A stretch of 64,000 nucleotides of DNA from a candidate division WWE3 bacterium (GCA_052035175.1 JBPOHV010000001.1:772228-836227); one strand, 5' to 3'; shown: positions 30,976 through 58,783, numbered from the stretch's first letter. Notes: generated by a model from the sequence alone, not told the origin. Made by a program: numbers and translations.

Positions 30976-33900
30976 CTATTGAGATTTTCGTTTAAAGATT
31001 AATGGTAAGGTCAAAAACCCTATAACCTCTAATACCTGAGGCCAGAAGATGGCATGTACATTATCCAAATTAGCCTCGGCTTTGCTCATAATCCAGCCAT
31101 TTGCCCAGTTATTAACCGCTATATGTTGGGCATTACAAGGTAAAAGACCACAGAACAACAGCCAACCGTGCTCATAAGCTTGGTTATAAACGACTAATTG
31201 TTGTTTATCAGCAGTCATCTTCTGCGCATCATAGGCATCTTTATAAACCAAAGACTTTATATAGCTATAAGGCACTTCAGAAACACTTAGGTACGCGAGT
31301 TCATTTTTTGTAGGTTCATTGCCTATAGGTAATGAAGTAAAGTTGAGAGTGTACCCCCTGCCCTTGTCCATTGGAGGTACAAAATAGTAATAATCGTGCC
31401 ATTCGGCAGATTCTGGTAGTGAAATATATAAATCGCATCTTTTACTTTCATTATTTGATAAACAAATTCGTAGAGGCAACCCTTGCAAGTTTCTAGATCT
31501 AAACTGCAATAATAACCCAGTTGCGTGAGATACGTTGTCCAAAGCTATTGTGTCACAAATATAATCGTCATTGGCTGTATATGTTAATACTCCGTTTACT
31601 ACTTTTGTATTTCCCCCAGATATCAACCTCTCACCTGTTTTACACGATCTTGGGTTCAAAGCAAACTTTGAAATATCACCAGAATAAATAGGATCTTTGG
31701 CTAGCTTTATATATGACGTCAATAAATTTAGATTATTCAAGTCAACATCAACCTTTGCAATAGTTGAAGGAGTAAGCAATGTCGGCTTTATATTAGAAAA
31801 ATCTATCGACACTTCGGTTTTGGATAAAATACCAGAAACACTTATGTGTAAATCGTATCTGCTTACATCATTGCCTTCTAATAAAGCGTAAACTGTACTT
31901 GCATCTACCGTATTATTTACGCATACACCGGTATAATTGTCATATATACATATACTTGGCTTGCGTGAGTCATTGTCAAAAACAAAGTTTAATAAAAGGA
32001 TTTCATTAGACTTTATTGCACTAACAAAATCTGCAAGCTTTATATTTACACAAGCGATCGCGCTTTTCGACGAAAGACTAAACCCAGTATTTGTCCTGGT
32101 TAAGGTATACGACGCATTAGCGTTTACATCACTGCATACATCTAGCGCAACATTCTTTATAGGTATTGCCTGTGCATCATATGTCTTTGTATAAAAAGTT
32201 GCATTTGATAAATCTGAGGTGCTTGCTTGTATATATTGTGCAGCGTGCGAAACATCTACTAAAGCATTTCCGAACCCTACATGTGTATAAATGGCTGGCA
32301 CTAAAAGCTCAAAAATCAAATATTGTCGGTTTGTATCATAACCTTGGATAACATGATTACCATTGTAATTCTTCGATTCTACTAACAATTCTATATCACC
32401 TTCATAATTATCAACTAACTTTATATTGGATTCTTTTGGCATTTGTAAATGTATAAACTTATCATCAGCTGAGATTGACGCTGCGCTCACTTTTTCGTCA
32501 TAATCATTAATCCCTACAAAAGGGAACACTTGCTCCCCTGTTTGAGCATATGTATTAAAGTAATCATATGCCGGATCGGTATGTTCTTTGAAAGAGTGAT
32601 CATTTGATAAAACATATTCAGACGTAATTTCTTTTTGAGAATATTGATGTGAAGGCGCGTATTTATAAACCAATAACCCATCGCCAAAGTCTTTTTCCAA
32701 AACTATATTATTTGACGCTTCTAACAAGGTCTGTATTTGGCTTAAATACAGCTCATTTGGATCATTACCCGGCAGCAATACACTTTTATCAAATAAAACC
32801 CATTTGACTTTATATTTGGAAAAAACTGCTTCAAAAGCTGGTAAATCTTGGCTATACACTGCTTTTACCATTTCTCGATAATAATTTTCGTTAGTAATAT
32901 TCCATCTATCAAATTCTCTATCCAGCAACGGCTGCTTTATACCAAACCACAAAAATCCTGCGCCTTGATAACCTGACTGGTTAGAACCCCAATTGTGATA
33001 TACCCAACCCCAAAATGTCGGTATTGGCAGGTTGGCAACTCTTCCATATTCTTTTTGGCCATCAAAATATTTAAACATGTCAAAATATCGATTTGGGATT
33101 TTGACCTTCATACTTGGGCTTATGAAGTAACCATTAAATGCTGGCAACATATAGTAACTTATGCAAAAAGATAAACTCAAGACAAAAAGTACTTTTACAA
33201 AAATACGCAAGATGTTGAATTTCAATTTATCAAAAAGGGAGTACAACCATGATACAAAGTAACCAAATAGACCACCATAACAAAGCATTAGCAAAATTGA
33301 GAATTTTGTGAAAGGAAATCTAAATGCTTCGCCAAAAAATGGCACATATTTTTGCAAAAAGATAAAAATAAATCCGAAAGGTGGATTCACATTTAGCAAA
33401 AAGAAGGCTGCCATAAGGCCAAGCATACCAATACTGAGCACATATTTATCCCGCTTATAAATACCTACTGACAAACCCATTAATGCCAAGAAATAAATGC
33501 TATATCCGATAGCAGATACATAAGGGCGGGCCAAATGAAAACTCCATTCGTCTAACAAATCACCAAATTGCCCATTACCAATATGCTCTCCCCAATTGAA
33601 CAAGAAATTCTTGAGTAATGCTGTATCAGCAACAGTACCAAATTTTTTATTCTGCAAGAATGCTTCTTGCGAAAACAAATGATGTATCTTTGACTCGCCT
33701 ACTTCTTGCGCATGATTCAAAACGAAATATACATTTGGCAATAACCAAAATAAATTAACAAAGATTAAATAAAAAATAATATGCAAAAAAACACCAAATG
33801 ATTGTTTAAATTGGTCTTCGAAAACCGAAATCAGCAGCAAAGTACCAAAATACACCACAATACCTCCAAAATAAGCATAAAATAGCGTGGCGGTATGAGC

Positions 33901-34500
33901 TTGTGACGCTGCCAACAGATTGAGACCAGCAAAAATGAGCAGATTTCTGCGTTCTTTTTTTTCAAAATACAAAGTACCAAATGCAAATATCCACCCCAAA
34001 TACCCATAATGTGTCAAAAACATTTCTAAAGGTACGTAAAAATGCTGCAGCGTACCCAAATTTAATAAATAAACTAAACCTGCAAAAAAACTGCCTACTT
34101 CTGATGCACTTTTACTGAATCTTTTGGTAAGTATTGTCTTTGCAAAGTAATACACTCCTAGCGGGCCTAATATAAGCATTAAAAAGGTGTAAGCATACCT
34201 CACCATATTAGTTGGTAAAAATAAGTCTATAAACATAAGTAGTGGTATACGCGTGATTTCTGAAGCATGTGCTTGAGTTGCCACCGCACCCAAACCTTGA
34301 TGCTCTTGCCATACTCCCCCCAAAATGCGAGACCAATAAATACGGTAGTTGAACTCTGGATGCAAAGTATCCCATCCTGTTAAATATGTCCCAGGTGAAT
34401 AATTTTTAAAACAAATAAATGCTGTGATAACAAACAAAACAATTGCAAGTGGGTTATGTATGATTAATGATTTAAAACGCAGGGCAAGTCGTTTGAGCAT
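30976..34500 (-). CDS. Large polytopic membrane protein (about 500-aa multi-TM N-terminal domain plus a 650-aa extracytoplasmic domain); a YfhO/GT-C-like putative glycosyltransferase.
   Basis: 1174 aa. More than 12 predicted TM helices, then a long soluble domain. The family assignment rests on architecture only. Confidence 0.4.
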   Translation of the reverse strand: MLKRLALRFKSLIIHNPLAIVLFVITAFICFKNYSPGTYLTGWDTLHPEFNYRIYWSRILGGVWQEHQGLGAVATQAHASEITRIPLLMFIDLFLPTNMVRYAYTFLMLILGPLGVYYFAKTILTKRFSKSASEVGSFFAGLVYLLNLGTLQHFYVPLEMFLTHYGYLGWIFAFGTLYFEKKERRNLLIFAGLNLLAASQAHTATLFYAYFGGIVVYFGTLLLISVFEDQFKQSFGVFLHIIFYLIFVNLFWLLPNVYFVLNHAQEVGESKIHHLFSQEAFLQNKKFGTVADTALLKNFLFNWGEHIGNGQFGDLLDEWSFHLARPYVSAIGYSIYFLALMGLSVGIYKRDKYVLSIGMLGLMAAFFLLNVNPPFGFIFIFLQKYVPFFGEAFRFPFTKFSILLMLCYGGLFGYFVSWLYSLFDKLKFNILRIFVKVLFVLSLSFCISYYMLPAFNGYFISPSMKVKIPNRYFDMFKYFDGQKEYGRVANLPIPTFWGWVYHNWGSNQSGYQGAGFLWFGIKQPLLDREFDRWNITNENYYREMVKAVYSQDLPAFEAVFSKYKVKWVLFDKSVLLPGNDPNELYLSQIQTLLEASNNIVLEKDFGDGLLVYKYAPSHQYSQKEITSEYVLSNDHSFKEHTDPAYDYFNTYAQTGEQVFPFVGINDYDEKVSAASISADDKFIHLQMPKESNIKLVDNYEGDIELLVESKNYNGNHVIQGYDTNRQYLIFELLVPAIYTHVGFGNALVDVSHAAQYIQASTSDLSNATFYTKTYDAQAIPIKNVALDVCSDVNANASYTLTRTNTGFSLSSKSAIACVNIKLADFVSAIKSNEILLLNFVFDNDSRKPSICIYDNYTGVCVNNTVDASTVYALLEGNDVSRYDLHISVSGILSKTEVSIDFSNIKPTLLTPSTIAKVDVDLNNLNLLTSYIKLAKDPIYSGDISKFALNPRSCKTGERLISGGNTKVVNGVLTYTANDDYICDTIALDNVSHATGLLLQFRSRNLQGLPLRICLSNNESKRCDLYISLPESAEWHDYYYFVPPMDKGRGYTLNFTSLPIGNEPTKNELAYLSVSEVPYSYIKSLVYKDAYDAQKMTADKQQLVVYNQAYEHGWLLFCGLLPCNAQHIAVNNWANGWIMSKAEANLDNVHAIFWPQVLEVIGFLTLPLIFKRKSQ

Positions 34501-34645: not shown

Positions 34646-35752
34646 TTACGGCGTCCAAATATATGGATCAAGAATAGTTCCGTCAGCCAGAACCTTCACG
34701 ATCCATGTATGGACACCACCTTGACCTGCAGCCCAGATATCAATCTGGGCGTCCCCGGCTATTTGCGTTGTTCCGCATGCCCACATTGGGGCAGTCTGCG
34801 GGGCATCTGGGCCAGGAACTTGGGTAAAGTGGAAAACTAAATCCACTTCGGAAACCACGACAAAAGTATCGTTCTGCGGTATGGCTACAGCCATCGTCGC
34901 AGATTCGATAATTGCCGAGTCTCCAGACCCAATAAGGCCTGGCCAACCCTCGGCCCAAAGGCGCGCTTCTGGATCTGGAGAATCCCAGAACCAGATGACG
35001 CCCTCTGGCTGAGGGCCACAATGATTTTCCTCGTACGGCACGGCCGTAGGAGAAGGTGTCATAGTAGGAGTTGGCGTGACCGTCGGGGACGGAGTCCCTG
35101 TGGGTGTCACAGGATCCGTCGGAGTCGACGTCACGGTTGGGCTGGGCGTGGCGGTCGGGCCATTGTACACCTCAACGGTGTACGCCCCATCCGCTGACAC
35201 GCGGATAACCCAATACTCCATCCCCTGATTTTGCCAACCAGAAGTCAGTTCTGCGATTTTGGACTCTGGCATATCGCCCTGAGTCCCACAACCGTAGATG
35301 TTAGCGAAACCCGACCCGCCCAGCGGGACATTGCTAAAGGACAGCGGAAGTTTCGAAATAAACAGCGTTGGAACGCTGATCGAAACTTGTTGCCCAGCAA
35401 TAATCCACAAAGATGGATCTACCGTAACCCAAAGCCCATTTCCTTCAGGCAAAATAACTGCCCAAGGATTCGAGGTGTCACCATCAACGATGGGACCACC
35501 TTGCTCATCCTGCCCGCATGGGCCTTGGATGAAGGGTTCGAGGGTGGCAGTGGGCGTTGCAGTCGGTTCCGGAATGCCTTCTCCATTTGCCACAAAGGGC
35601 AAATAGGAAAGCAGGTTCAACGGAAGAGCCTCCGTAGGGGTCGGGCTAACCCGATCCGCTACATTGTTGGCCAGCGCCTGAAACGGCGCGACCAATAAAG
35701 AAAAAACAAAAAAGGCCGCGATGGCCAACGATAAGAAACGATTAAGTTTCAC
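34646..35752 (-). CDS. Secreted protein with a Pro/Thr-rich linker, encoded in a GC-rich (about 57%) compositional island.
   Basis: GTG start, with AAGGAG 9 nt upstream. Signal peptide MKLNRFLSLAIAAFFVFSLLVAPFQALA. Linker PTATPSPTVTSTPTDPVTPTGTPSPTVTPTPTMTPSPTAVP. Codon usage and GC content are sharply different from the flanking sequence. Confidence 0.65.
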   Translation of the reverse strand: MKLNRFLSLAIAAFFVFSLLVAPFQALANNVADRVSPTPTEALPLNLLSYLPFVANGEGIPEPTATPTATLEPFIQGPCGQDEQGGPIVDGDTSNPWAVILPEGNGLWVTVDPSLWIIAGQQVSISVPTLFISKLPLSFSNVPLGGSGFANIYGCGTQGDMPESKIAELTSGWQNQGMEYWVIRVSADGAYTVEVYNGPTATPSPTVTSTPTDPVTPTGTPSPTVTPTPTMTPSPTAVPYEENHCGPQPEGVIWFWDSPDPEARLWAEGWPGLIGSGDSAIIESATMAVAIPQNDTFVVVSEVDLVFHFTQVPGPDAPQTAPMWACGTTQIAGDAQIDIWAAGQGGVHTWIVKVLADGTILDPYIWTP

Positions 35753-35885: not shown

Positions 35886-37487
35886 TTAGATAATAAATCT
35901 CGAACTAAGGCTCCAAAAAGCCATAAAAAGCGCACCAAGGAGCACAAAAAGCACATAAAACAGCTTTGTAGGTAACTTTTTGCTTTCCAAAAGCATAGCC
36001 AAATATACAAACAAACTCAGACCAAAAAAGCTATATTTCAAAACCCCAGAAAGTCCCCCATTGACCAGACCAATTGTCAAAAAGCAACTCAACAAAGCAT
36101 AAAACATATTTTGCGTATCTTGATTTAATTTATCTTTTAATCTAGTAATTCCAAAAAAACTTAAGCCTGCTAGCAAAATTGCACTTAGTGTTTCAAACAG
36201 CGCATATTTGTCAAAATGCACAAAGTAATTGAATAATCCGCCTACAAAAGAAGTGCCATCACCATACCAAGGTTTGCGCGCGTTATAAATAACCAACCAA
36301 TCACCAGTTTGCGAATACAAAGCATACAGATACATAAACAAAGTCAGCAAAACTATTGAAACAATCAACAAATACTTCTCTCGTTTATCTTTGAGCATAA
36401 AATATAAAGGAATCAAAACTAATAATCCATAAATATTTGTATAAACCAGCAAAGACAATAAAAATCCGCTCAATACACTACTCTTCTTTGCATAAAAAAG
36501 AGTCATAAATAAAAGCATGTTAAAAATGGAAACGCTCAAAAATGCAAAATTAAAAAAAGAAAAAGGAAATAAAATATATAAAATAGTAGATTTCCAGGCT
36601 AAACTTTCGTCGAAATAAACTTGCAATAATTTATATAAATAAAACGCCGAAACTATAAAACAAACTAGCGAAATTAGTATTCCAGACACAACTACATCCA
36701 AACTACTTAATGAAACAAATTTGGCGAGATTGGAATATAAAGGCATAAATGCATAAACAGTAAACTGCTTTTCGTATGAAATTTGAGGAACTTCGACCAA
36801 ATTATCTTTAGAAATGACTCTACAACCATCACCTCTATATTCCAAATCTGGCATACCGTTTGGACGCGTGCTACCAAAGGTAGGTTGAGGCTGTTCAGGT
36901 GATATTTTTGAGAAAGATTCTTGATATACAACATTATTATCATAAGCAGAATAATAAGTTACAAACGCAGTATCACACGCGCTATCGCCACAAGCTGTAG
37001 GATTGGTAATACCTTCGTTTGCAATTTTTACATCGCGGTCATAATCAATAGGGCCAGTAAACTCACAATAACCAATACCTTCATAACCATTATAAATAGG
37101 CACAGTTACTCTTTCGCCTCTTTTACCTATCAAAAATAATGTGTTATTAACTTTTTGTGTAAATAGCGTGTGAGGCAAAGCAAATTTCTTTTCGCCTACT
37201 AAACCAGAACCCAAAAATACTTTTACCCAACCGTCTGCAGGTATATCTATGTTGGCAACAGTTATTTTTTGATCAAGCTTGGGATACCCTTTTTCAGCTA
37301 TATCATAATAAAATCCGCTATCCCAAGACGTCCAAGCATTTACAAATGTATACGGGCTTGTATATGTCCACGATGGGAATGGTTTGGAAGTATCTAGTAA
37401 AGTTGTGCGCGCAAAAACTCCAACCAGTGTATATACGACAAATAACCCAAGTATTAATAATGTTAATTGGCTGAGTTTTTTGGGCAT
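35886..37487 (-). CDS. GT-C-fold membrane glycosyltransferase-like protein (PIG-V/DUF2029-like WD..Y.IA..GY motif).
   Basis: 533 aa. N-terminal TM segment, WDSGFYYDIAEKGY motif, C-terminal domain of about 10 TM helices. Confidence 0.4.
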   Translation of the reverse strand: MPKKLSQLTLLILGLFVVYTLVGVFARTTLLDTSKPFPSWTYTSPYTFVNAWTSWDSGFYYDIAEKGYPKLDQKITVANIDIPADGWVKVFLGSGLVGEKKFALPHTLFTQKVNNTLFLIGKRGERVTVPIYNGYEGIGYCEFTGPIDYDRDVKIANEGITNPTACGDSACDTAFVTYYSAYDNNVVYQESFSKISPEQPQPTFGSTRPNGMPDLEYRGDGCRVISKDNLVEVPQISYEKQFTVYAFMPLYSNLAKFVSLSSLDVVVSGILISLVCFIVSAFYLYKLLQVYFDESLAWKSTILYILFPFSFFNFAFLSVSIFNMLLFMTLFYAKKSSVLSGFLLSLLVYTNIYGLLVLIPLYFMLKDKREKYLLIVSIVLLTLFMYLYALYSQTGDWLVIYNARKPWYGDGTSFVGGLFNYFVHFDKYALFETLSAILLAGLSFFGITRLKDKLNQDTQNMFYALLSCFLTIGLVNGGLSGVLKYSFFGLSLFVYLAMLLESKKLPTKLFYVLFVLLGALFMAFWSLSSRFII

Positions 37488-39795: not shown

Positions 39796-40560
39796 TTACT
39801 GTTCGAGAACAGTCGTTTCAACAAGCGAGTAGCCTGGGATGGACGCGGCATCAATCACGAGGAAACCCTCACTTTGACTGCCTTCGTCGAGCACGGCATA
39901 TGACGCATAAACGTCTTTGCCTTCACCAGGACCACCTTTCGGACCTTGCAGGTCCGCCGCCATTAACGCGATTTGTTCGGGGGTACCCCGATAAATGCAC
40001 AAATGCACATCATGGCGGTTGTTTGGATCATTCCAGCTCGTTTGCACAGTCACCTCGAGGGGTACCGTTGAACCATTGTAGAAAGAGAGCACTGCCCCCT
40101 TTCCACTAGACTCAAAGGTTTTACCCGCAAAGGTAACCACGCCGGGCGACATGGAGAGCCAAGCGCCTTCACCAGGATTGAGAACAGCCACCGGGATGGC
40201 GGTTTCAACAGTGAGAAGGGGCATAGCGGCCTCGTCGCAAGCGACGTAAACTGGATCACCAGCCGGGGCTTCCCGAACCATTTCGGTCAGCAATTGCTGA
40301 TTGGCGACCTGACGAGAGGTCCCGGTAGCCGCAATGGCTTCGGGACTGTCGAGGTCGATGGTGTTCCGGCTATTGGAGCCGGTGTTCTCGGTGACCGAGG
40401 TTTCCCAAGGCCAGTTAATCGCGGACATAGATGGCGAAGCCACCTTAAAGACTGCGCTTCCGATTACCACCACACAGGCGGCAATAAAAGCGAGCAGTAC
40501 CGCTCCAAACAGAAACTGGAAGAAGCGGGTCCACGGGTTGACGGATTGAGTTGTGTTCAT
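39796..40560 (-). CDS. Signal-anchored hypothetical protein encoded in a GC-rich (about 56%) island.
   Basis: ATG at 40560, with AGGAG 8 nt upstream. MNTTQSVNPWTRFFQFLFGAVLLAFIAACVVVIG... The track start at 40587 is an upstream TTG. Confidence 0.55.
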   Translation of the reverse strand: MNTTQSVNPWTRFFQFLFGAVLLAFIAACVVVIGSAVFKVASPSMSAINWPWETSVTENTGSNSRNTIDLDSPEAIAATGTSRQVANQQLLTEMVREAPAGDPVYVACDEAAMPLLTVETAIPVAVLNPGEGAWLSMSPGVVTFAGKTFESSGKGAVLSFYNGSTVPLEVTVQTSWNDPNNRHDVHLCIYRGTPEQIALMAADLQGPKGGPGEGKDVYASYAVLDEGSQSEGFLVIDAASIPGYSLVETTVLEQ

Positions 40561-40760
40561 GAGAATTCTCCTTGTTTTTCTTGACAATCTGTGAATGCAG
40601 AATGCCTTATTTAAAGCTCCAAATTTCTTTAGAAACTTAAAAAAGGCATTTGCACACAGTAACCAAAATAAGAAGATTTCTCATTTATTTAACCGTAAGT
40701 ACGCATTTTCAATGTACTTCGCCTTAGCTATAAGCTAAAACGAATATTCCAGCGATTTGA
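40561..40760 (-). promoter_or_regulatory. AT-rich 5' leader of the GC-rich gene at 39796..40560; copy A of a duplicated leader of about 180 bp.
   Basis: About 65-70% identical by eye to 41283..41480, including the same SD context AGGAGAAT(T/A)(C/T)TC-ATG and the blocks ...tccaa..ggaaact.aaaaaaggcatt..., ...tttaaccgt.a.acgc.ttttcaa.gt.cttc.c.ctaagc... Confidence 0.5.
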
Positions 40761-40901
40761 CTCGGCTGGCTTCAAGCCTCAAGAATTCAATCTTAACGCT
40801 TAGAGCCAGCCCGGCAACCAATGGTGTGTAAATTCCTCCCCTTTCGGGGAAGCTAGACACAGCCTCTGGCTGCCGAGGAGACGTGTAACGGTTTGGGCCA
40901 A

Positions 40902-41282
40902 CTAGGCAGTCGCCTTTTTGAAAGGATTGAATGAGGCAAAGGCCTCACGCAAGCCATCCAACATGGCGTCTTTAACGCCAACCTTGAGCTGGGGATTTTC
41001 GGCCGCATCAGCCACGAACAAAGCCCGGACGCTGTCCGGAATGTATTCATAGGCCAACAAGGCTTTTTCGATCCGATCAGACGGATCGTGGGCTAACCCA
41101 CGACGCGAGAGATCGGCATTGCCGAGGCTCGGATCAATCGATCCAACTAAGGCGTCATACGCCTGTTGGATAAACTCTATCCCGACACCTTTCGCGGCAC
41201 GCGCATCTGCGGCAGATACAATAGTGGACAAAAGGGTGGTTTTGAGATCCGGGGCTGTGGGGGCAACTTTAGCAGTAATCAT
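40902..41282 (-). CDS. Hypothetical protein (126 aa) encoded in a GC-rich (about 58%) island.
   Basis: ATG at 41282 with AAGGAGAATATC immediately upstream. No family recognised. Confidence 0.5.
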   Translation of the reverse strand: MITAKVAPTAPDLKTTLLSTIVSAADARAAKGVGIEFIQQAYDALVGSIDPSLGNADLSRRGLAHDPSDRIEKALLAYEYIPDSVRALFVADAAENPQLKVGVKDAMLDGLREAFASFNPFKKATA

Positions 41283-41736: not shown

Positions 41737-42021
41737 TCATCTTCCGGTGTACCATTCTTGGTCCCACCAAAAGAAAAGTCCAGGTGCTATGGGCGTTGAC
41801 CAGTAGCTGTTAACTTCTACTCCCCCTTGTTGGGGGTAATAGAAACAAACATAGTTCTTTTGTACAAGAATTGCGGACAAAGATTGTCCGCCAAACTCGT
41901 ACTGGGAAAAAACTGCCCTGTTAATACACTGGTTTCTGGCATAAACTGCCAGAAAGTGTAGTGTAAAACAAAAGAAAAAGGTTATCAATGAAAGCCAGAT
42001 AAACTTTTGCACTTTAGACAT
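41737..42021 (-). CDS. Small membrane-anchored hypothetical protein (94 aa).
   Basis: GGAGG SD upstream of the ATG at 42021. TM segment FIWLSLITFFFCFTLHFLAV. Confidence 0.45.
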   Translation of the reverse strand: MSKVQKFIWLSLITFFFCFTLHFLAVYARNQCINRAVFSQYEFGGQSLSAILVQKNYVCFYYPQQGGVEVNSYWSTPIAPGLFFWWDQEWYTGR

Positions 42022-42087: not shown

Positions 42088-43437
42088 TTATTCAATCAAC
42101 GAAGATATTCTTTGTGCAGCAGTTATGTTTGGGAATTTAGGATTCACCTTGGTCAAAGCGCTATTACAAGCGTACTGCAGATCTTCATACGCGCGTTCAT
42201 ACTTATTGATTTCAGATGCATGGAGCTCACCAAAAATTGGATCTTGTAAAAGGAAGTCTTCTAGAGATTCATTTTGAAGCACAGGGCACGCCTCACATAA
42301 ATCACGCCACATATTTTCACTTGTATAAAACTTGTCTTCGTTACCTATTGTGTTAGATATGAGTGCTTGCATAAAATAGCCAGATCTAAACAAATTGTAT
42401 ATATTTCTAATCTCTTGTCCTTCTACACTCGTATCAGGCAATTCATGATCACAGTCCCCAACTTCACAAGCGATAGACACATTGTGAGCGCTAAAATTAC
42501 CATGCCAGTGCCCTCCACCAATCATACCTGCCAAATTTAAAATCATTTGTTTTCTAAAAGACATTGCATATGAATTAAAAGAAAAGTCATCACCCATATG
42601 GACAGCACAGCCCAAAGAATACTGAGTATTATGCTTTTTGTTGTAACTGTGTACTTCTTTTGCGTCAGATATAAAAGTAAAAGCACGACCTGCAATAACG
42701 TCTATTGTATTTCTTGCATTTATTGTCAAAGAATCAACATCTGGGGACGAACTAGGATCAAGCGACAATGTCGTGGATTCATATAAACTGTTTACGCGCA
42801 AATTAGAAGCCCACAAACGTTGTAACGCGCCAAGCGAAACAGACGGTTTAAATACTTTACCTGCAAAAACAAATTTATCATAAGCAAGCGTCGGTAAAAA
42901 TTTACATGTGAGCACGCCATCTTTTTCCATTTTTAAAATATGCTCGATGTCAAAAGCAAGGTCTGATAATGTTTCTACACCCATAGGTTCGCCAGAATCA
43001 TCTTGCTTATCAGCATAACGCTTGAAATGAGAAGACTTTGTCACATTAACTCCTTTCACATCGTGCGCTGTGTATACACGGTCATCCAAAACCCAACCTT
43101 CTTCAAAAGTGACCGCTTTACCACCAAAAGGATACGCTACTGCTGTGACACTAGACTCTTCTGGAGCTACTACACACACACTATATTCGTGTGCAAACTT
43201 TTCTCCGCCATCATACATAGGGACATGCTTTACAGGTGAAATACCCAACTGCGTGAGCAGCTCTTTATCTCTACCACTCAATGGGCTATTAAATTGAGAC
43301 ATTTCTGTTGTATACATTTGAGCGTCTTCGCCTTGATAACCAAGCTCCAATACCGTTGCTACATGCCCAGGGGTTTTAACTATATGCTCAGTATTATAAA
43401 TATACGTGACCATGTCTGGACCAAATGGATACGTCAT
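42088..43437 (-). CDS. Hypothetical protein (449 aa) with a kinase-like catalytic-loop motif; last gene of the RHH operon.
   Basis: GGGHWHGNFSAHN resembles HipA DxHxKNFS and APH HGDxxxxN catalytic loops. A weak match only. Confidence 0.4.
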   Translation of the reverse strand: MTYPFGPDMVTYIYNTEHIVKTPGHVATVLELGYQGEDAQMYTTEMSQFNSPLSGRDKELLTQLGISPVKHVPMYDGGEKFAHEYSVCVVAPEESSVTAVAYPFGGKAVTFEEGWVLDDRVYTAHDVKGVNVTKSSHFKRYADKQDDSGEPMGVETLSDLAFDIEHILKMEKDGVLTCKFLPTLAYDKFVFAGKVFKPSVSLGALQRLWASNLRVNSLYESTTLSLDPSSSPDVDSLTINARNTIDVIAGRAFTFISDAKEVHSYNKKHNTQYSLGCAVHMGDDFSFNSYAMSFRKQMILNLAGMIGGGHWHGNFSAHNVSIACEVGDCDHELPDTSVEGQEIRNIYNLFRSGYFMQALISNTIGNEDKFYTSENMWRDLCEACPVLQNESLEDFLLQDPIFGELHASEINKYERAYEDLQYACNSALTKVNPKFPNITAAQRISSLIE

Positions 43438-43474
43438 AGTCTTTGTACCTTCTTTTCTATTTTCTTTATTAAAA

Positions 43475-43978
43475 CTAATTCTTACCTATACTTTGTTGCC
43501 TTATTACAGGTATATAATTTAATGCTTGAGTGTGAATCTTCAATTTCTTTTCTGAGTCTTTTATATCTTTAAGACACTCCGCAGATTTTAAAATAGCTTC
43601 ATCAGAGGTAAGTGCATCTTGTCTAAATGTAGCGAGGTCAGCTTTACTCTTTTCTAAAAGTTCTGAGTAATAAGTTTGCAACATAGTAATTATTCTTTCG
43701 GCACCTATAGCTGGCGACGATATACTCATAGTTTCTGTAGGAGAACGAAACTTTTGATTGAACAATGAAGCAAAAGCGTCATAATCAGCAGTCAACTCAT
43801 CGACTCGCCTATCTTGTACTTCTGGAAGATCACCAGATTCTCTAACAAAGTCAACCAAACCCTCCATACACATACGCGCGTCGATAAATGATTGTGAAAA
43901 TGCTTCTTTATCTGGTATTTCTGTATTTCGAGGAATTTCATTATGAGGAAAGTCTAGTGTTGTTAATGTGTTATGCAT
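43475..43978 (-). CDS. Hypothetical protein (167 aa).
   Basis: ORF with tight spacing (17 nt and 37 nt) to its neighbours on the same strand. Confidence 0.45.
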   Translation of the reverse strand: MHNTLTTLDFPHNEIPRNTEIPDKEAFSQSFIDARMCMEGLVDFVRESGDLPEVQDRRVDELTADYDAFASLFNQKFRSPTETMSISSPAIGAERIITMLQTYYSELLEKSKADLATFRQDALTSDEAILKSAECLKDIKDSEKKLKIHTQALNYIPVIRQQSIGKN

Positions 43979-43995
43979 ATATTTATTCTAACAAA

Positions 43996-46059
43996 TCAAA
44001 GTACATCCGCCATTTTTAGTGCTGCATGATATACAACTGGCTTTTGACGGACTTCTTGTGTTACTTTATCGACAACTTTTACATAAGTTACCTCTGGTAA
44101 GTTAGCAGATCGACGCAAAGCGTTTACTTCTACCAAATCCCAACCTTGCTCGTCTGAGGCCAACATATATTGGCTCGCGTGCGCTCTCTCACCAACACCA
44201 AGCCTACGTAGATGCCCAGCTCTTGTAAAAGCTATCAAAGTGTCTTCTTCTTCTTTAGTTTTTTTCCCTCTTCCATAATTAATATTTAGATCTGTGGCTT
44301 CATTGCATGTAATTTCAGCTAAATGTGCTAAAACCATAACTTCAAACCAATTAGTATTATCATTGTATGCACCATATCTAGACATATCTTTACGAGTTTG
44401 TGGATCTAATAGTTTCTTATGTTTATCTAATAAAAGTCGTATTGTGCATTTACCTACGGCTACATCTACAATATATTCAGATTTAGTTTTGCCATTAAAT
44501 TTATAAGTTATTGATGAATAACCCAGACCACGTAAGCTTTGATCCCCTATCTCGCATTGCGTGCCACGAGGACTTATAGATCTACGAAAGTCAATTTTCA
44601 AACGATTTGCAACTTTACCTTTTTTTTCTACTAAATCTGTTGGTAATGATTCGGGTGACAACCAATTTATACATGTCGCGACTTCGGCACTTTTCAACAC
44701 AGGATTATCAGTTTGCCTTTCGAGATTTGCAAGTACAAGGCCTCTAAAATATCCGTGTTGTTCTTCGGGGTGTAACTTTTTATCTGGTACATGTATAACA
44801 GTAGGTTCACCAGGCAAAGTCAAAAAAACATGAGCATTCAAACCTTTTTGCCTAGAAAATCTCCCATAGTCTGCATATATCATTTCCCTAAGAGAGCCAA
44901 TATTTGTAGATATAACATTATATGGAAAAACATTTCTTTCTTCATCTGGAATTTCTGTAAGCGCTGTCGAGTCTTCGTCACCATAAAATAATGCTAAAGC
45001 AGCAAGGCGGCGTTCAAGTACAGCGCGTTGCCTACGATCTGAAATTGTATCTAGAAGGTTACGTGCGTGTATTTCTTTTGATAACATGCCTATCGTTTTA
45101 ATATTTCCAGATGGGTTACTAGAATCATCAAATGCAAGGGTGTCTGGGTGCACGAGACTAAACTTTTCTGAATTTAAGCGCTGTGCAACTAAGGGTTGTA
45201 ATGTCTTAATAATATAATTATAAGCTGGATCAGCGTCTAGCATTTTTGTGACTGCCTTTTTACGCTTGTTTCTCCACTCATTATGGTTATCTGGTGTATA
45301 TAACTTTCCATACCAATCACAAAATAATTCGACTTCGGAATATTTTTTAAAAATCTCATCATTAGCAGATAGAAAACCATTAGCAAAATTTAATCTATAA
45401 GCATTTGCAGAATTACCAATCGTTATATCGCTATTACTACACAATATATTCAATACATATGCAATCTTTGCAGCGTCACCGTCGTCCAAACCCACTTCTG
45501 CTAATAAATAAGATGTCTCTACTACGTGTTTAGTTTGTTCTATCTGATTACCTTTTGGCTCACGCGAAAGTAAACCTTTCAAAATCGCATGGCTATATTT
45601 AGAATGCAATGAGTTTGCTGTAGCAGATGTGATTAAATCTAAAGCTCTTTCTTGTGTAAGAGGTAAGCTTTGCAAACTACTCTTTTCTGCAACACGTAAC
45701 AAAGAATTATGTATAGAACTACGCATGCTATTAATTAATTTTGATGTTTCCGGATTTAATTGGGCAATTTCTTCTAAATTTCTAAAAACCCCAGGCAAAA
45801 GTTGGGAATTATTAATTAATGTTGTAGATACTGAGTTAGTAACTGCCTCCATACGAGCTTTATCACCCAAAGCCGCACTATAATCTGCACATAAATTGGT
45901 CGTCAATAAATATGCCTGTTGATCTAAGCTACTATCGTCGTTAAAAACGGATTCATTTGAGGACATGGGCATACCTGCATAAGCATTACCTTTAGTTCCG
46001 CGGTTTTTACCTTTTAATTTTTCTTCTTCTGGAAAATAAGGGATATCTTCAAAGTGCAT
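43996..46059 (-). CDS. Hypothetical large protein (687 aa).
   Basis: Long ORF. No family recognised. Immediately downstream of the small RHH gene. Confidence 0.5.
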   Translation of the reverse strand: MHFEDIPYFPEEEKLKGKNRGTKGNAYAGMPMSSNESVFNDDSSLDQQAYLLTTNLCADYSAALGDKARMEAVTNSVSTTLINNSQLLPGVFRNLEEIAQLNPETSKLINSMRSSIHNSLLRVAEKSSLQSLPLTQERALDLITSATANSLHSKYSHAILKGLLSREPKGNQIEQTKHVVETSYLLAEVGLDDGDAAKIAYVLNILCSNSDITIGNSANAYRLNFANGFLSANDEIFKKYSEVELFCDWYGKLYTPDNHNEWRNKRKKAVTKMLDADPAYNYIIKTLQPLVAQRLNSEKFSLVHPDTLAFDDSSNPSGNIKTIGMLSKEIHARNLLDTISDRRQRAVLERRLAALALFYGDEDSTALTEIPDEERNVFPYNVISTNIGSLREMIYADYGRFSRQKGLNAHVFLTLPGEPTVIHVPDKKLHPEEQHGYFRGLVLANLERQTDNPVLKSAEVATCINWLSPESLPTDLVEKKGKVANRLKIDFRRSISPRGTQCEIGDQSLRGLGYSSITYKFNGKTKSEYIVDVAVGKCTIRLLLDKHKKLLDPQTRKDMSRYGAYNDNTNWFEVMVLAHLAEITCNEATDLNINYGRGKKTKEEEDTLIAFTRAGHLRRLGVGERAHASQYMLASDEQGWDLVEVNALRRSANLPEVTYVKVVDKVTQEVRQKPVVYHAALKMADVL

Positions 46060-46094
46060 GCTGAAATTATAGCAAGAGATTAATTTGATTATGC

Positions 46095-46208
46095 TTAAAG
46101 TAGTATTTTTTTCAAAGCTTTTTCGACAACATCTTGTAAAGTCATATCATGCTCAATTGCATACAACTGAGCGAGCTTTTTTACTGTGCTATCAAGCATA
46201 ATAGTCAT
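46095..46208 (-). CDS. Small ribbon-helix-helix (CopG/antitoxin-like) protein; first gene of a four-gene operon.
   Basis: ATG at 46208 with AAGGTGA SD. MTIMLDSTVKKLAQLYAIEHDMTLQDVVEKALKKILL has a beta-strand/helix/helix pattern typical of RHH. Confidence 0.5.
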   Translation of the reverse strand: MTIMLDSTVKKLAQLYAIEHDMTLQDVVEKALKKILL

Positions 46209-46442
46209 CTTCACCTTCGAACTATTTGCAGGTAATTTAAAAATTACCGAGTTAGATTTTCTTTTAGTCACAGCCACAAATACAGTATAACCGTATATAC
46301 GGATTGCCGCAAGTCTGTATAAATAGACAACGCACATTGGAATCACCGCTGGTTTTTCTTTTGTTGCTTCAGTAAGAGAACAAATTTTCTAACGTACATA
46401 GCTTGTAAAGTTTTTTTTATGATTTAGTATTTGATCTAAGAT

Positions 46443-46569: not shown

Positions 46570-46977
46570 CTAAAGGGACAGTCCTAAATCGTCCCTTCTA
46601 TTCTTTTCAAAATAGTTTCTAATAGTTGTTAAATCCTCTAGTGAGGCCAATAAACGTGCTTTGTATCTTCCTTGAAACAAGTGTCCTACTCTCCCATATT
46701 TATAATTAAAATATAAAACGTACCTGATACAAACTGATCGCATCATTTTTTCTATATCTCTTTCTTTATTTTGAAAAATTAATAAATGAAAATGATTTTT
46801 TACATAAACATGATCTAGCAAAAGAACATTGTTCTTATTAACAGCAGCAAATAAATATTTATGAAAGACAAAATAATCTTTTTCCTCCAAAAATATATCT
46901 CGCTTCTCTACACCACGATTATAAATATGATAATAGCTTTCACATACATATTTTTTTAATATATTTTTACCAGGCAT
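46570..46977 (-). CDS. REP-associated tyrosine transposase (RAYT) / IS200-like Y1 HuH transposase, paralogue 1.
   Basis: 135 aa. YHIYNRGVEKR...NHFHLLIF (HuH) ... GRVGHLFQGRYKARLL (catalytic Tyr). The last codons DDLGLSL* are encoded by the REP. Confidence 0.75.
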   Translation of the reverse strand: MPGKNILKKYVCESYYHIYNRGVEKRDIFLEEKDYFVFHKYLFAAVNKNNVLLLDHVYVKNHFHLLIFQNKERDIEKMMRSVCIRYVLYFNYKYGRVGHLFQGRYKARLLASLEDLTTIRNYFEKNRRDDLGLSL

Positions 46978-47115
46978 AACCCAAATCTATACCTAAGATA
47001 AATTTTTTCCAGAATCAAATTTCTAGTAAAAATAGAATATACAGGGACAGTCCCTAAAGTAAGCCAAAACAAGGCTAAAACATTACATTGAAAGGGTCCG
47101 TTTAGGACTGTCCCT
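46571..47115 (-). mobile_element. RAYT/IS200-like unit 1: Y1 HuH transposase gene flanked by cognate REP-like palindromes.
   Basis: Left REP gggacagtcctaaatcgtccc (46574-46594). Right REPs agggacagtccctaaag (47043-47059) and inverted tttaggactgtccct (47101-47115). Confidence 0.7.
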
Positions 47116-48116: not shown

Positions 48117-48178
48117 ACTTGCAAAACCTCTTTTTTACAGGCTGTAAACTTGCAGAACTTCCTTTTTACAAGTTCTAG
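48100..48178. terminator. Tandem near-repeated hairpin units of about 32 bp between the convergent PIN-TRAM and radA genes.
   Basis: ttgcaagctgtaaacttgcaaaacctcttttttac / aggctgtaaacttgcagaacttcctttttac, each with the stem-loop gcaag-ctgtaaa-cttgc and a T-run. Confidence 0.55.
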
Positions 48179-49506
48179 GGTGATAAGCTTTTTTTGATAG
48201 CATCTGGCAAAGAAGAAACCGTATCAGAAGAAACTACACGTGAAAATCCTAGTTTTTTGGCTTCTTTGATGCGCTTTTCGATATGAGATATTTTGCGTAA
48301 CTCACCTCCCAAACCACATTCACCAAATGCGCATATACCATCTTTTAAAGCAATGTCTTTAATAGAAGAAGCAACCGACAAACACACAGCCAAATCTGCT
48401 GCATACTCTGAAATATTAAACCCACCTACTACGTTTAGATATACATCATAGCTGCTTACAGGAACTCCACAGCGTCTTTCGAGTATAGCTAAGAGTACTT
48501 GTAATCTATTTGCGCTAAAACCGCTGGTACGTCTTACTGGATAACCGTAACTAGTTTTTACAGTGAGCGCTTGTATCTCAAACAAGATAGGACGAAAACC
48601 TTCCATAGTAACTGTAATACATGAGCCAGGTCGATTTTTATAATTTTCCAAAAATACTTGTGACGGATTTTCTACTTGCACCATACCTTCATTTTTCATT
48701 TCAAAAACCCCAACCTCAGAAACTGCGCCAAATCTATTTTTACTGGTTTTGAGAATTCTAAATATATTTTGTGTATCACCTTCCAAAATAAGTACTGTGT
48801 CTACTATGTGCTCCAGAACTTTTGGTCCGGCAACTTCGCCTTCTTTAGTCACATGGCCTACCAATACAAACGGAACATGAATCCGTTTGGCCACTTGAGT
48901 AAACAACTGAGCACAGTTGCGAAGTTGCCCAACAGAACCAGCCATGCCACTAAGACCATCGGCACTAAACATTTGTATAGAATCAATTATTACCAAATTG
49001 ATATCGTCTTTTTCTACATTACTTTCTATCAAATCACATACACTTTGAGCATTTGTTTCTTGCACAACAAACATATTTTCACCCTTATAACCCAGACGCT
49101 CAGCTCTAATTTTTATTTGCTGCGTGCTCTCTTCTGCAGCTACATACAAAACATTTTTTTGAAGCATTTTGGATATTTCTAACAAAATAGTACTTTTACC
49201 TATTCCAGGTTCTCCAGCTATCAAAATAACTTGACCGGGAACAAATCCCCCACCCAGCACTCTATCTACCTCTGGCATGTTTGAAGAAATACGATCTACT
49301 TTTGTTGATTTTGTTTTTGAAAGAGGTGTTAATTCATAATTTAAATTTGGCCTAGATTTGACAGTCATACTACCACTAGCATTTGTGCTAGAAATTAAAT
49401 TTTCTTCAAATGAATTCCATTCCTGGCATTTTGGACATTGACCAAGCCAACTAGAAGTTTCATAAGAACAATTTTTACAAACAAAAACTTTGCGTATCTT
49501 AGACAT
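48175..49506 (-). CDS. radA: DNA repair protein RadA/Sms.
   Basis: N-terminal zinc ribbon CKNCSYETSSWLGQCPKCQEW, RecA-like GEPGIGKSTILL, and the KNRFG motif. Confidence 0.9.
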   Translation of the reverse strand: MSKIRKVFVCKNCSYETSSWLGQCPKCQEWNSFEENLISSTNASGSMTVKSRPNLNYELTPLSKTKSTKVDRISSNMPEVDRVLGGGFVPGQVILIAGEPGIGKSTILLEISKMLQKNVLYVAAEESTQQIKIRAERLGYKGENMFVVQETNAQSVCDLIESNVEKDDINLVIIDSIQMFSADGLSGMAGSVGQLRNCAQLFTQVAKRIHVPFVLVGHVTKEGEVAGPKVLEHIVDTVLILEGDTQNIFRILKTSKNRFGAVSEVGVFEMKNEGMVQVENPSQVFLENYKNRPGSCITVTMEGFRPILFEIQALTVKTSYGYPVRRTSGFSANRLQVLLAILERRCGVPVSSYDVYLNVVGGFNISEYAADLAVCLSVASSIKDIALKDGICAFGECGLGGELRKISHIEKRIKEAKKLGFSRVVSSDTVSSLPDAIKKSLSP

Positions 49507-53057: not shown

Positions 53058-53562
53058 AAAGGGCTAGGCCCGGCTTAGCCTTATTCTAAGTTTCTTAGAA
53101 TTTACAATGTTGTCACAACTAGAAAAGTAAATATTATAACCTATATGCCACAACGGAATGTCAAAAAAGTATACCTACCAAACAGCTTTTATCACATATA
53201 CAATCGAGGTGTAGAAAAAAGAGTGATTTTTAATAGTCAAATGGACTTAAATGTATTTGAAAAATATCTTACAGATAGCTTGCTTAAAAACAATATTAAA
53301 ATTTATGAAAAAGCCTTCATGCCAAACCATTATCACTTACTAGTTTTTCAAAAAGAGGCACATGCTATTGAAAAAATGATGCACTCACTTGGTACTAGAT
53401 ATACTATCTACTTCAATATTAGGCATAACAGAACTGGACACTTATTCCAAGGAACCTATAGAGCAAGACTGGTGAATACTGATGGCGATTTTCAAGCGGT
53501 TACAATGTATATAAGAAATCATTACGTAGAAGATGAGGAGGCTAAGCCGGGCCTAGCCCTTT
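53058..53562 (+). mobile_element. RAYT/IS200-like unit 2, flanked by a perfect 23-bp inverted repeat.
   Basis: aaagggctaggcccggcttagcc (53058-53080) and its exact reverse complement ggctaagccgggcctagcccttt (53540-53562). Each arm is itself an imperfect palindrome: ggctaggcc-c-ggcttagcc. Confidence 0.75.
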
Positions 53563-53567
53563 GGTAG
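53145..53567 (+). CDS. RAYT / IS200-like Y1 HuH transposase, paralogue 2.
   Basis: 140 aa. FYHIYNRGVEKR...PNHYHLLVF...GHLFQGTYRARLV. The C-terminal KPGLALW* is encoded by the right REP. Confidence 0.75.
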   Translation: MPQRNVKKVYLPNSFYHIYNRGVEKRVIFNSQMDLNVFEKYLTDSLLKNNIKIYEKAFMPNHYHLLVFQKEAHAIEKMMHSLGTRYTIYFNIRHNRTGHLFQGTYRARLVNTDGDFQAVTMYIRNHYVEDEEAKPGLALW

Positions 53568-53577: not shown

Positions 53578-53715
53578 CTGTCCCGGCGACGACCTATCTT
53601 CCCAGGCATTCTGCCAAGTATTTTCAGCGCTGACGGTCTTGACTTCTCTGTTCGGAATGGACCTCGCCGAAGCGAGTTAAGAGGTATAACCCCGCCGCTA
53701 TCATCACCGAGACAG
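53578..53715 (-). rRNA. rrf: 5S rRNA (with an extra hairpin insertion of about 18 nt).
   Basis: The reverse complement contains ...GGTGATGATAGCGGCGGGG...CCGAACAGAGAAGTCAAGACCGTCAGCGCTG... Helix I is ctgtctcgg paired with ccgggacag. The inserted ctcgcttcggcgag is a UUCG-capped stem. Confidence 0.7.
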
Positions 53716-53784
53716 TATTACCAATAAAGTGTGCTCATTTTGAAATAAACACACTAAAAACTGAATAGAAGACTGTAGTTAGAA

Positions 53785-56862
<3,078 letters not shown>

Positions 56863-57008
56863 ACTACCTTGTTTTACCAAGGTCGAACGTTAAATTCTAA
56901 CTTGCTTCTATTCAGTTCTCAATGTGCTTTACTTCGCAAAGCCGATCTCACAAGCTAGCTTCGCTTTCGCTTAGCCGACCTGATGGTCTAGCTTTACTAA
57001 TCTATTTT

Positions 57009-57084
57009 TGGTGGACCCGACGGGATTCGAACCCGTGACCTCTGCGATGCAAACGCAGCGCTCTACCAACTAAGCTACAGGCCC
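57009..57084 (-). tRNA. tRNA-Ala (anticodon TGC), immediately upstream of 23S.
   Basis: Reverse complement GGGCCTGTAGCTTAGTTGGTAGAGCGCTGCGTTTGCATCGCAGAGGTCACGGGTTCGAATCCCGTCGGGTCCACCA. G3:U70 pair. Confidence 0.85.
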
Positions 57085-57499
57085 ACGAAGTGGGTATGTA
57101 AGAGGAAGTGCAATCCCGCTAAGCAGGATAACCAAGCTCTTCCAAGCCCGTGGTACTAGGTATAGATCTTTCGATCACGCACCCAAGTTTATAGATTATA
57201 GAAATGAAGTTGAGATAGTACAAGGTTTTATCCTATGCATATCTCTAAGAGGAATCTAGAGCTTCTAAATAGACTACATGAAATGCAGTTAAGTGAAGAT
57301 TAGCATTCCCATTCCGTATTGGCATAATACAAAATGCCCTCACCCATGTCAACCTTATTTATTGTTAAAAAATAGCGACTTTTCGTCTATGAGGGAATAC
57401 ATAAAAAATCCAAGCAAAGAAATAAAAATAAATAATGCAGAACCCACTATATATATCCAACCTATTACTGTAGTTTTCATATGTAAACTATGACTATTT

Positions 57500-58627
57500 T
57501 CAATCGCCATCCTCGACAATTTCAGCCTCAAGGGGACCAAAAAGATGCGCGTGGTGAGTAGTAAACCAGCTACGAGCAGACTCAACCTTTTCCCCAATTT
57601 GTGCTACGGCATCCATATCTGAACCAGCGTTGTCAATTAAACCTTTTGCATAAACATCCAGTATTTCTTCCAATGTATTTATCGCTTGCATATAGTCTCC
57701 TTTTGCCAACTCATTAATACGGTGTACTATTTGAGCCTCTTTCTTTATAAAAGCGTCGTCTGGGGTTGGTGGCTTCGAAGCTTGTGTCTCTGCTTTAGCA
57801 GCTGGCGCTCTAGCTGGTTGAACTGGCGTCTCTGGAATACCGTTGGAAGCTCTTGAATCATAGACTAAATCACTAAATGCACCTGCCTTGGCAAGTTTCT
57901 CTGCATCTGCATTCATTTTCAAATATCTAAGTAAGTAAGCATAGCCGTCTTTATATAATGCACGAGCCAGTAAAAACTTGGCATCCGCATACTCTTTTAT
58001 TTTTTCAGGAGTATTATGGCTTGCAGCAAGTGCGGACAAATACTCATCCATATGGGCCACAAATTTAACAGGCGAGGGAAATTTTTTAAAAACTTTGGTC
58101 AGATGTCCAGGGCTAATAATCGATTCTTTTAGACCATGTGCTTTCTTCTCGGAATATGCAGTATTGAGCCTTGTTGCAAGAGGTAACGCATCGTCGGCAC
58201 ATGCAGCAAGCAACAATACCTGCGCACGACGATTGATATCCAGCTCAGTACCTTTACCAGAGATGACCTTACGCCACTTAGACTTCTCCGGTGTGTAAGT
58301 TATCTCATCGATAATTGTTTTTGGTTTATATACCTCAGCACACGCATTTGTAATAAAACGCTCCATACCTTTCTTGTACCGACCCTTATGTAGATTGAAG
58401 TAAAAACGCATATTCGCCCGCGGATTTACATTTGGCCTTAGTGTGTCACCAACACCACTTATACCCGCATCCTTAAGTTCATTATCAATATGTTGTATAC
58501 GTTCGGGGTCTAGTAATGCAGTTTGCTCAGCAATAGCACTTTCCAATGCGCTACTATAAGCCGCTTCTACTGTCTTAGGTGTGGTTTCTAAATCGTTCGG
58601 TACCCTATTAATTCCTGCCATATGCAT
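57500..58627 (-). CDS. Hypothetical protein (375 aa) located between tRNA-Ala and tRNA-Ile.
   Basis: Long ORF with protein-like composition. No family recognised. Confidence 0.45.
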   Translation of the reverse strand: MHMAGINRVPNDLETTPKTVEAAYSSALESAIAEQTALLDPERIQHIDNELKDAGISGVGDTLRPNVNPRANMRFYFNLHKGRYKKGMERFITNACAEVYKPKTIIDEITYTPEKSKWRKVISGKGTELDINRRAQVLLLAACADDALPLATRLNTAYSEKKAHGLKESIISPGHLTKVFKKFPSPVKFVAHMDEYLSALAASHNTPEKIKEYADAKFLLARALYKDGYAYLLRYLKMNADAEKLAKAGAFSDLVYDSRASNGIPETPVQPARAPAAKAETQASKPPTPDDAFIKKEAQIVHRINELAKGDYMQAINTLEEILDVYAKGLIDNAGSDMDAVAQIGEKVESARSWFTTHHAHLFGPLEAEIVEDGD

Positions 58628-58705
58628 ATAATTCTAGTTAAAACTTAAGATATAAACAAGCTGTAAAAATAAATTTCTATGTTAAAATTCAAAATGTCTA
58701 CGTTT

Positions 58706-58782: not shown

Positions 58783-58783
58783 T

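Follow-up and report, generated by a model that had tools for sequence, protein, structure and literature searches.

A predicted SelO-like protein of a highly divergent family, encoded in a four-gene cluster of native composition with a ribbon-helix-helix-like protein in a candidate division WWE3 bacterium

A cluster of four genes was examined in a 64-kb stretch of bacterial chromosome (~35% GC) from a candidate division WWE3 bacterium (GCA_052035175.1; JBPOHV010000001.1, coordinates 772228–836227), which is part of a 925-kb contig and is referred to here as the window. The last gene was predicted, from a structural model, to encode a protein of 449 amino acids (aa) with a protein-kinase-like fold to which SelO is closest, and the family to which it belongs is a small, hitherto unannotated and highly divergent SelO-like group. 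The chance that the cluster is a native protein-nucleotidylylation module, associated with a ribbon-helix-helix (RHH)-like protein and centred on this divergent SelO-like enzyme, is judged to be slightly better than even. The four genes, taken from a listing of open reading frames (ORFs), are as follows.

46095..46208, minus strand: gene for an RHH-like protein, 37 aa
43996..46059, minus strand: gene for a soluble protein of 687 aa
43475..43978, minus strand: gene for an acidic (pI 4.9) soluble protein of 167 aa
42088..43437, minus strand: gene for the SelO-like protein of 449 aa, last of the four

The four co-oriented ORFs, and the spacers of 35, 17 and 37 nucleotides (nt) that separate them in the order RHH–687–167–449, were recovered as an earlier note on this DNA had described them, but the RHH-like protein, given there as 38 aa, is 37 aa long. 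Transmembrane segments were absent from all four products, which are all predicted to be soluble, and no paralogue of any of them was found elsewhere in the 64-kb window.

The cluster was also found, with identical gene order and 95–96% nt identity, on two contigs (L001 and L002) of a second strain (GCA_020049755.1). Mismatches between the strains in the three large genes pile up at third codon positions, and the ratios of non-synonymous to synonymous substitution (dN/dS, Nei–Gojobori method) came to 0.19 in both the 449- and 167-aa genes and to 0.30 in the 687-aa gene. As dN/dS falls between 0.19 and 0.30 in the large genes, and as the codon changes in the 37-aa part of the RHH ORF comprise nine that are synonymous and one that is not, all four ORFs are genuine genes under purifying selection and not chance ORFs. 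The RHH ORF is open in frame up to a GTG at 46346; since this upstream stretch diverges freely between the strains while the 37-aa part is constrained, the ATG at 46208 is the true start. The GC content at third codon positions (GC3) of the four genes (0.23–0.31) matches that of the core genes for RadA, ClpC and PMT, indicating a native composition. The contigs of GCA_020049755.1 that carry the near-identical sequence are 1.5–2.9 kb long with contig numbers above 559,000, and this assembly may be that of a host or eukaryote, or a metagenome, carrying the bacterium.

When the 449-aa protein was searched exhaustively with HMMER against 1.84 billion representative sequences, 16 homologous proteins were found at E≤0.001, 12 of them at E≤1e-10. 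Most are ~450 aa long and 26–38% identical to the 449-aa protein, and their distribution is sparse and patchy. A match of 1677 aa with 10 matched stretches (P0017) was repetitive and spurious, and was discarded. A word-indexed search of a 5.8-billion-protein index found only the 95%-identical strain, and a second search with a profile of the family recovered P0001 and P0014 only. The statement in the earlier note that the three large proteins belong to no recognised family was borne out, as none of them matched an entry in Pfam, NCBIfam, PADLOC, PHROGs or the PDB sequences. The profile of the 449-aa family gave nothing meaningful against the PDB sequences, no consistent Pfam family was found among 14 family members, and scans of metagenomes with subset patterns and a degenerate DNA pattern for QNxSxxxExGDWD returned chance matches only.

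An AlphaFold model of the 449-aa protein, built from an alignment of 14 sequences, was confident (pLDDT 82.8, pTM 0.87). When this model was used in a Foldseek search, ranks 1 to 9 were all occupied by SelO/YdiU entries (probability 0.99–1.00), and the top matches included YdiU–NAD complexes released in 2026. HipA appeared in neither match list and APH (aminoglycoside phosphotransferase) appeared at rank 48; structural matches in BFVD were insignificant. The earlier note had drawn attention to GGGHWHGNFSAHN (residues 307–319) as reminiscent of kinase catalytic loops, and the predicted protein-kinase-like fold agrees with that observation. The further suggestion that HipA and APH are the relatives did not hold, since SelO fills the leading ranks; an identity as HipA or APH was ruled out by the fold ranking, and no HipA-like catalytic domain was found. 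No description of a divergent SelO-like family of this sort was found in the searchable literature.

SelO/YdiU (PF02696; PDB 6eac, 6k20, 6lna and 9l29) is an AMPylase/UMPylase with a protein-kinase fold, in which the beta3 Lys, the alphaC Glu and two Arg residues grip the gamma-phosphate of a flipped ATP, and an Asn and an Asp coordinate metals (PMC8097203; bioRxiv 10.1101/692707). The residues K113, E136, R176 and R183 of the Pseudomonas syringae protein correspond to K107, E130, R170 and R177 in the Escherichia coli numbering used below. The 449-aa family was compared with a SelO profile of nine sequences, made up of E. coli selO together with eight genes that bacteria, archaea and cyanobacteria carry on plasmids, using hhalign in local mode with a low mact setting, as global mode gave a meaningless alignment. 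The two profiles aligned over alphaE, the catalytic loop and the DFG-equivalent (P=0.0014), and at a permissive threshold the alignment was colinear across the kinase core. The equivalent residues are listed below, preceded by the block that contains the last three of them, which was taken from the family alignment.

42448..42519, minus strand: catalytic-loop and DFG-equivalent block GGGHWHGNFSAHNVSIACEVGDCD, residues 307–330
K/R107 (Gly-loop), equivalent to R87 of E. coli SelO: 13/13 members
K128 (beta3), equivalent to K107: 9/13 members
D163 (alphaC), equivalent to E130: 10/14 members, a conservative Glu-to-Asp change
R207, equivalent to R170: 11/14 members
R214, equivalent to R177: 14/14 members
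H312, equivalent to H240: conserved in the family
N319 (catalytic loop, metal), equivalent to N247: 13/13 members
D328 (DFG-equivalent, metal), equivalent to D256: 13/13 members

The consensus of the block in the family is WHxNxSxQNxSIAGExGDWD, an invariant Arg is also present, and 13/13 members share N314, N319, E325 and D328. The block aligns with HGVMNTDNMSLLGLTLDYG of E. coli SelO, placing N319 opposite N247 and D328 opposite D256. The N-x8-D spacing of this pair is that of SelO, and this is the sole segment that hhalign aligns unaided; R207 and R214 are seven residues apart, as is the Arg pair of SelO. Because the residues of SelO that hold the flipped nucleotide and the metals are kept, transfer of AMP or UMP from a nucleoside triphosphate (NTP) to a protein side chain is the likeliest activity, and the 449-aa protein is probably a divergent SelO-like nucleoside monophosphate (NMP) transferase that acts on proteins.

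SelO occurs across the tree of life, whereas the 449-aa family is very sparsely distributed. The 449-aa protein is ~11% identical to SelO, and differs from it in having N244 replaced by Ser, the alphaC Glu by Asp, and D246 by Gln or His; Asn314 and Glu325 are additional invariant residues of the family. The C-terminal Cys/Sec or auto-AMPylated Ser tail is also absent. The 449-aa protein ends in AAQRISSLIE, no C-terminal Cys is conserved in the family alignment (A2), and a CEAC at positions 381–384 is unconserved.

The contigs of nine distant homologues of the 449-aa protein were retrieved, and in four of these the flanks were ample and the homologue was solitary.

L086, 10001–11353: between the genes for NusA/IF2/S15/PNPase and those for DnaJ-DnaK-GrpE-HrcA, tail-to-tail with dnaJ and overlapping its 3' end
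L088, 2644–4029: between the genes for SecE-NusG-L11-L1 and NrdR
L107, 10001–11374: within the genes for RuvC, RuvA and RuvB, directly between ruvC and ruvA
L087: near the gene for KsgA

The homologues on short contigs have small neighbours that are unrelated to one another, and no RHH-like, 167-aa-like or other conserved small neighbour was found in any of the nine loci. The SelO-like gene in the window is ~3.5 kb from radA-clpC, and a recurring neighbourhood of DNA-repair or proteostasis genes is possible.

Another of these loci, L109, from an unrelated genome, encodes a SelO-like homologue of 603 aa (P0011); two genes upstream of P0011 is an ORF that shares a C-terminal domain with the 687-aa protein. 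This domain is the only part of the 687-aa protein with a detectable distant relative, and its position is given below.

44011..44682, minus strand: C-terminal domain of the 687-aa protein, residues ~460–683

The domain matches residues 504–732 of an ORF of at least 743 aa in L109 (pair aligned as A4), with a phmmer E value of 0.0026 among 842 ORF segments, a pairwise BLASTP E value of 8e-6 (35 bits), and 208 colinear columns in hhalign (P=0.0016). The Smith–Waterman score was 88, compared with a mean of 41.6, a standard deviation of 5.4 and a maximum of 70 for shuffled sequences, corresponding to a Gumbel P value of ~9e-6, or ~4e-3 when corrected for the ORFs and queries tried. The recurrence of such a domain near a SelO-like gene in L109 hints, genuinely but thinly, at a functional link between the 687-aa protein and the SelO-like enzyme. 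In L109 (coordinates 1–10160, ~50% GC), co-directional genes encode proteins of at least 743 aa, 511, 603 (SelO-like), 427, 335, 212 and 362 aa; the cluster is almost wholly unannotated, with weak matches of the 511-aa protein to GDSL-lipase and of the 335-aa protein to trypsin-like proteins. It is possible that this cluster represents an enlarged form of the system in the window.

The 687- and 167-aa proteins otherwise remain lineage-specific orphans. A search of the 5.8-billion-protein index with the 687-aa protein yielded a single homologue, the 95%-identical protein of the second strain (P0002), no match was found in plasmids, phages or IMG/VR, and a profile of its C-terminal domain gave nothing meaningful against the PDB sequences. 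Its low-confidence AlphaFold model suggests that the N-terminal two-thirds would be all-helical and the C-terminal third mixed alpha/beta. For the 167-aa protein, the assignment as an orphan is based on the family libraries and the PDB sequences and on a 90%-identity cluster that contains the two strains only; IMG/VR and plasmids also gave no match.

The 37-aa protein resembles RHH repressors of the CopG/Arc/MetJ type in its length and in a sequence pattern in which a predicted N-terminal strand (MTIMLD) precedes two helices, the second of them TLQDVVEKAL, and which includes a D-M-T turn. Its best matches were to Antitox_RHH in Pfam (PF20605; E=0.023, 15.3 bits) and to the Arc-like repressor of PHROG 582 (E=0.093), and a search against the PDB sequences was uninformative. 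These scores are under the curated thresholds, the cut-off for PF20605 being 27.2 bits. It is probably a DNA-binding transcriptional regulator.

The earlier note described the four genes as a tight operon. This is plausible, as a consensus scan found no terminator-like site on the minus strand within 42088–46208, though one feature listed below points to a separate promoter for the three large genes.

46057..46076, minus strand: block CTTGCTATAATTTCAGCATG, read from the sequence and invariant between strains, with an extended -10 element TGcTATAAT at 46066–46074
46291..46302, no strand assigned: perfect 12-bp palindrome CCGTATATACGG, 83–94 nt upstream of the RHH start, from an inverted-repeat scan
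41873..41891, minus strand: first downstream terminator-like hairpin, ~200 nt past the stop codon of the 449-aa gene, with a weak T-run and only suggestive

The spacer between the RHH and 687-aa genes is 77% identical between the strains, and CTTGCTATAATTTCAGCATG is unchanged within it, suggesting a promoter dedicated to the three large genes. TGcTATAAT ends 6 nt before the ATG of the 687-aa gene, which has no Shine–Dalgarno sequence. The 687-, 167- and 449-aa genes are therefore probably co-transcribed from an extended -10 promoter as a near-leaderless mRNA, and the RHH-like protein possibly acts on this promoter. The palindrome CCGTATATACGG is a candidate operator; the contig of the second strain stops at ~46287, short of this site. 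The Shine–Dalgarno sequence AAGGTGA noted earlier for the RHH gene occurs in the window but is not conserved, being AAAGTTA in the related strain. In the spacer between the 167- and 449-aa genes (43438–43474), an 11-nt deletion in the related strain removes the sole Shine–Dalgarno-like GAAGG, and the strains are 100% identical in the 17-nt spacer between the 687- and 167-aa genes, where TAGAAT is found. Translation initiation in the cluster may be independent of Shine–Dalgarno pairing.

Taken together, the explanation favoured here is that the cluster would be native and vertically inherited in a deep-branching, low-GC, small-genome bacterium. The 449-aa enzyme would move AMP or UMP from an NTP to a protein side chain using a re-wired catalytic loop, in which Gln or His stands in place of the proposed general-base Asp and the family-invariant Asn314 and Glu325 are additional. 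The 37-aa RHH-like protein would regulate transcription, with the three large genes transcribed jointly from the promoter just before the 687-aa start. The 687-aa protein, via its C-terminal domain, and perhaps the 167-aa protein would be specific to the lineage and serve the enzyme as partners, substrates or regulators. As a whole, the cluster appears to be specific to its lineage, and the mechanism of the enzyme is deduced by comparison with SelO.

Several observations weigh against this explanation. The sequence similarity of the family to SelO is marginal, with an hhalign probability of 17%, and neither PF02696 nor the NCBIfam SelO models detect any member of the family (0/14 for PF02696 even at E≤1, with E. 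coli SelO as a positive control scoring 513 bits). The residue equivalences come from a profile alignment and not from superposed coordinates, and K128, D163 and R207 fall short of strict invariance. The position of D246 in SelO is occupied by Gln in 10/13 and His in 3/13 family members, and is His in the window protein and Gln in the 95%-identical strain. As regards the other genes, no gene like those for the RHH-like, 687- or 167-aa proteins was found near the homologues in L086, L088, L107 or L087 using tblastn and phmmer. The partnership with the 687-aa protein rests on two cases and a distant similarity (~4e-3 after correction), the model of the 687-aa protein, from a two-sequence alignment, is of low confidence (pLDDT 33), and the assignment of the 37-aa protein as RHH draws on sub-threshold matches and a strand-helix-helix sequence pattern.

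Mutation of Asp246, the proposed general base of SelO, abolishes the activity of YdiU (bioRxiv 10.1101/692707). As Asp246 is replaced by Gln or His in the 449-aa family, the chemistry may differ, or the protein may be inactive. An enzyme with a SelO-like fold but a different chemistry, such as hydrolysis of NAD+, NiRAN-like nucleotidylylation or RNAylation in which the acceptor is N-terminal or not a protein, or modification of a small molecule, is unlikely, though SelO's general-base Asp is replaced, Asn314 and Glu325 are invariant residues peculiar to the family, YdiU–NAD complexes were among the top structural matches, and NADase activity of SelO has been reported (PMC13391479). The phosphate- and metal-binding residues of the flipped-NTP site of SelO are all present and equally fit protein NMPylation, NiRAN and viral structures match the model weakly, and there is no direct evidence for an alternative substrate. 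Kinase-fold enzymes are known to carry out chemistry other than phosphorylation, including AMPylation, UMPylation and NADase activity by SelO, glutamylation by SidJ and RNAylation by NiRAN. It is a little less likely again that the 449-aa protein is a dead pseudoenzyme or scaffold, or that the four genes are merely uncoupled neighbours. The loss of an Asp that is essential in YdiU and the toggle between His and Gln in close strains would fit a pseudoenzyme, but proteins that are only 23–38% identical all share R214, N314, N319, E325 and D328 without exception, a pattern that marks an active site kept by selection. The mostly solitary homologues, and the finding that 11 of the 19 neighbourhood ORFs scanned are orphans, would suit uncoupled neighbours; against this stand the spacings of 17–37 nt, the co-orientation, the lack of an internal terminator, the synteny in the second strain, and the recurrence of the 687-like C-terminal domain beside a SelO-like gene in L109.

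The earlier note proposed a toxin-antitoxin (TA) or anti-phage defence module. In such a module, a kinase-fold toxin would attack an essential target and be neutralised by the 167-aa protein and/or an RHH antitoxin-repressor, with the 687-aa protein as a sensor or accessory. Nucleotidylylating and phosphorylating toxins exist, for example Fic/Doc and HipA, and several features recall them. Like HipA in HipBA and HipBST, the 449-aa protein is a predicted kinase-superfamily enzyme of ~440 aa from a cluster that opens with a small, putatively DNA-binding protein. If the enzyme is an AMPylase, it would be a functional analogue of Fic/Doc AMPylating TA modules, in which a small partner controls nucleotidylylation, though the Fic fold is unrelated to the kinase-like fold, the HPFx[D/E]GN[G/K]R motif is absent, and no inhibitory helix protein was recognised next to the enzyme. 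The weak resemblance of the RHH-like protein to Antitox_RHH (E=0.023) and an Arc-like repressor, the small acidic protein encoded directly upstream of the enzyme, the RAYT-like gene and foreign-looking GC-rich ORFs that flank the cluster, and the sparse, patchy distribution of the family also speak for a TA module. However, PADLOC-DB 2.0 gave 0 matches at E≤1 for all four proteins, no toxin was matched in Pfam, NCBIfam or PHROGs, and no relatives of the large proteins were found in plasmids or IMG/VR or, for the 449- and 687-aa proteins, in phages. The GC3 of the cluster is native, and known defence genes are absent from its vicinity, where the genes encode RadA, a ClpC-like ATPase, a PIN-TRAM protein and a PMT-type glycosyltransferase. 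The RHH gene is 2.6 kb and two genes away from that of the enzyme, unlike the architecture of type II systems. Co-occurrence with an RHH-like gene was not seen near the homologues of the 449-aa protein, which are solitary in housekeeping settings with no conserved small partner adjoining, an outcome set beforehand in the earlier note as telling against its proposal; this disfavours an intrinsic toxicity that needs a cognate antitoxin. A TA or defence module is thus improbable, more so than either alternative considered above.

Within the favoured explanation of a native nucleotidylylation module, a more elaborate version can be entertained with considerable doubt, namely a multi-component system in which the re-wired SelO-like enzyme, a 687-aa partner, an acidic modulator and RHH control together would form a stress or proteostasis switch or a toxin-immunity system. 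YdiU UMPylates chaperones, and with clpC-radA ~3.5 kb away and homologues adjoining dnaJ-dnaK and ruvCAB, an analogy with proteostasis can be drawn, though it is speculative. Divergent branches of the kinase fold, an active field of research, have so far each shown new chemistry or targets, and the 449-aa family, which would combine the flipped-nucleotide site of SelO with the loss of its presumed general base, offers a natural test of the active-site mechanism. The family goes undetected by Pfam, NCBIfam and the defence-system models, and an enzyme encoded alongside a regulator and two proteins that may be its partners or substrates could provide an experimental handle on small-genome bacteria that are hard to cultivate. 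In a genome where most neighbours are orphans, an arrangement of large unknown proteins behind an RHH-like gene should not be taken for a TA or defence system.

In the window, 11 of the 19 neighbourhood ORFs scanned had no Pfam family. Large ORFs of 1174, 533 and 375 aa at 30976–34500, 35886–37487 and 57500–58627 likewise lack one, and a 15-kb stretch here is for the most part uncharacterised. As orphan status is the local norm, the adjacency of orphans is weak evidence of function. The best match of RadA (48175–49506) among 185,579 species representatives was only 47% identical (metagenome-assembled genomes of Clostridia and Peregrinibacteria), indicating a lineage with no close sequenced relative in that genome set.

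The earlier note also placed the cluster in a mobile or accessory neighbourhood. A RAYT-like gene and foreign-looking GC-rich ORFs do flank the cluster, but the cluster itself looks native and is kept in the second strain. Three ORFs of 263, 126 and 368 aa (39796–41282 and 34646–35752) have a GC content of 0.53–0.54 and a GC3 of 0.53–0.57, compared with ~0.25 for the GC3 of core genes, and have the appearance of genes acquired recently from a donor of high GC content; they have no Pfam family, and Rfam identified no RNA in their region. Those at 39796–41282, directly downstream of the cluster, have a GC3 of ~0.57. The window contains three IS200/Y1-transposase (RAYT-like) genes, at 46570–46977 (minus strand), 53145–53567 (plus strand) and 58784–59227 (minus strand). 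Copies of the palindromic GGGACAGTCC flank the one adjacent to the cluster (46575–46584, 47043–47054 and 47105–47115) as REP-like hairpins, with four matches found against 1.2 expected by chance.

The rRNA operon (53581–62279) is split, with 5S-23S-tRNA-Ala lying ~3.7 kb apart from the 16S gene. The gap holds a 375-aa orphan, a tRNA-Ile gene on the opposite strand, a RAYT-like gene, the gene for FolD and a 163-aa orphan. The 23S gene spans 3064 nt compared with a model of 2925 positions, and the 16S gene spans 1443 nt compared with 1533.

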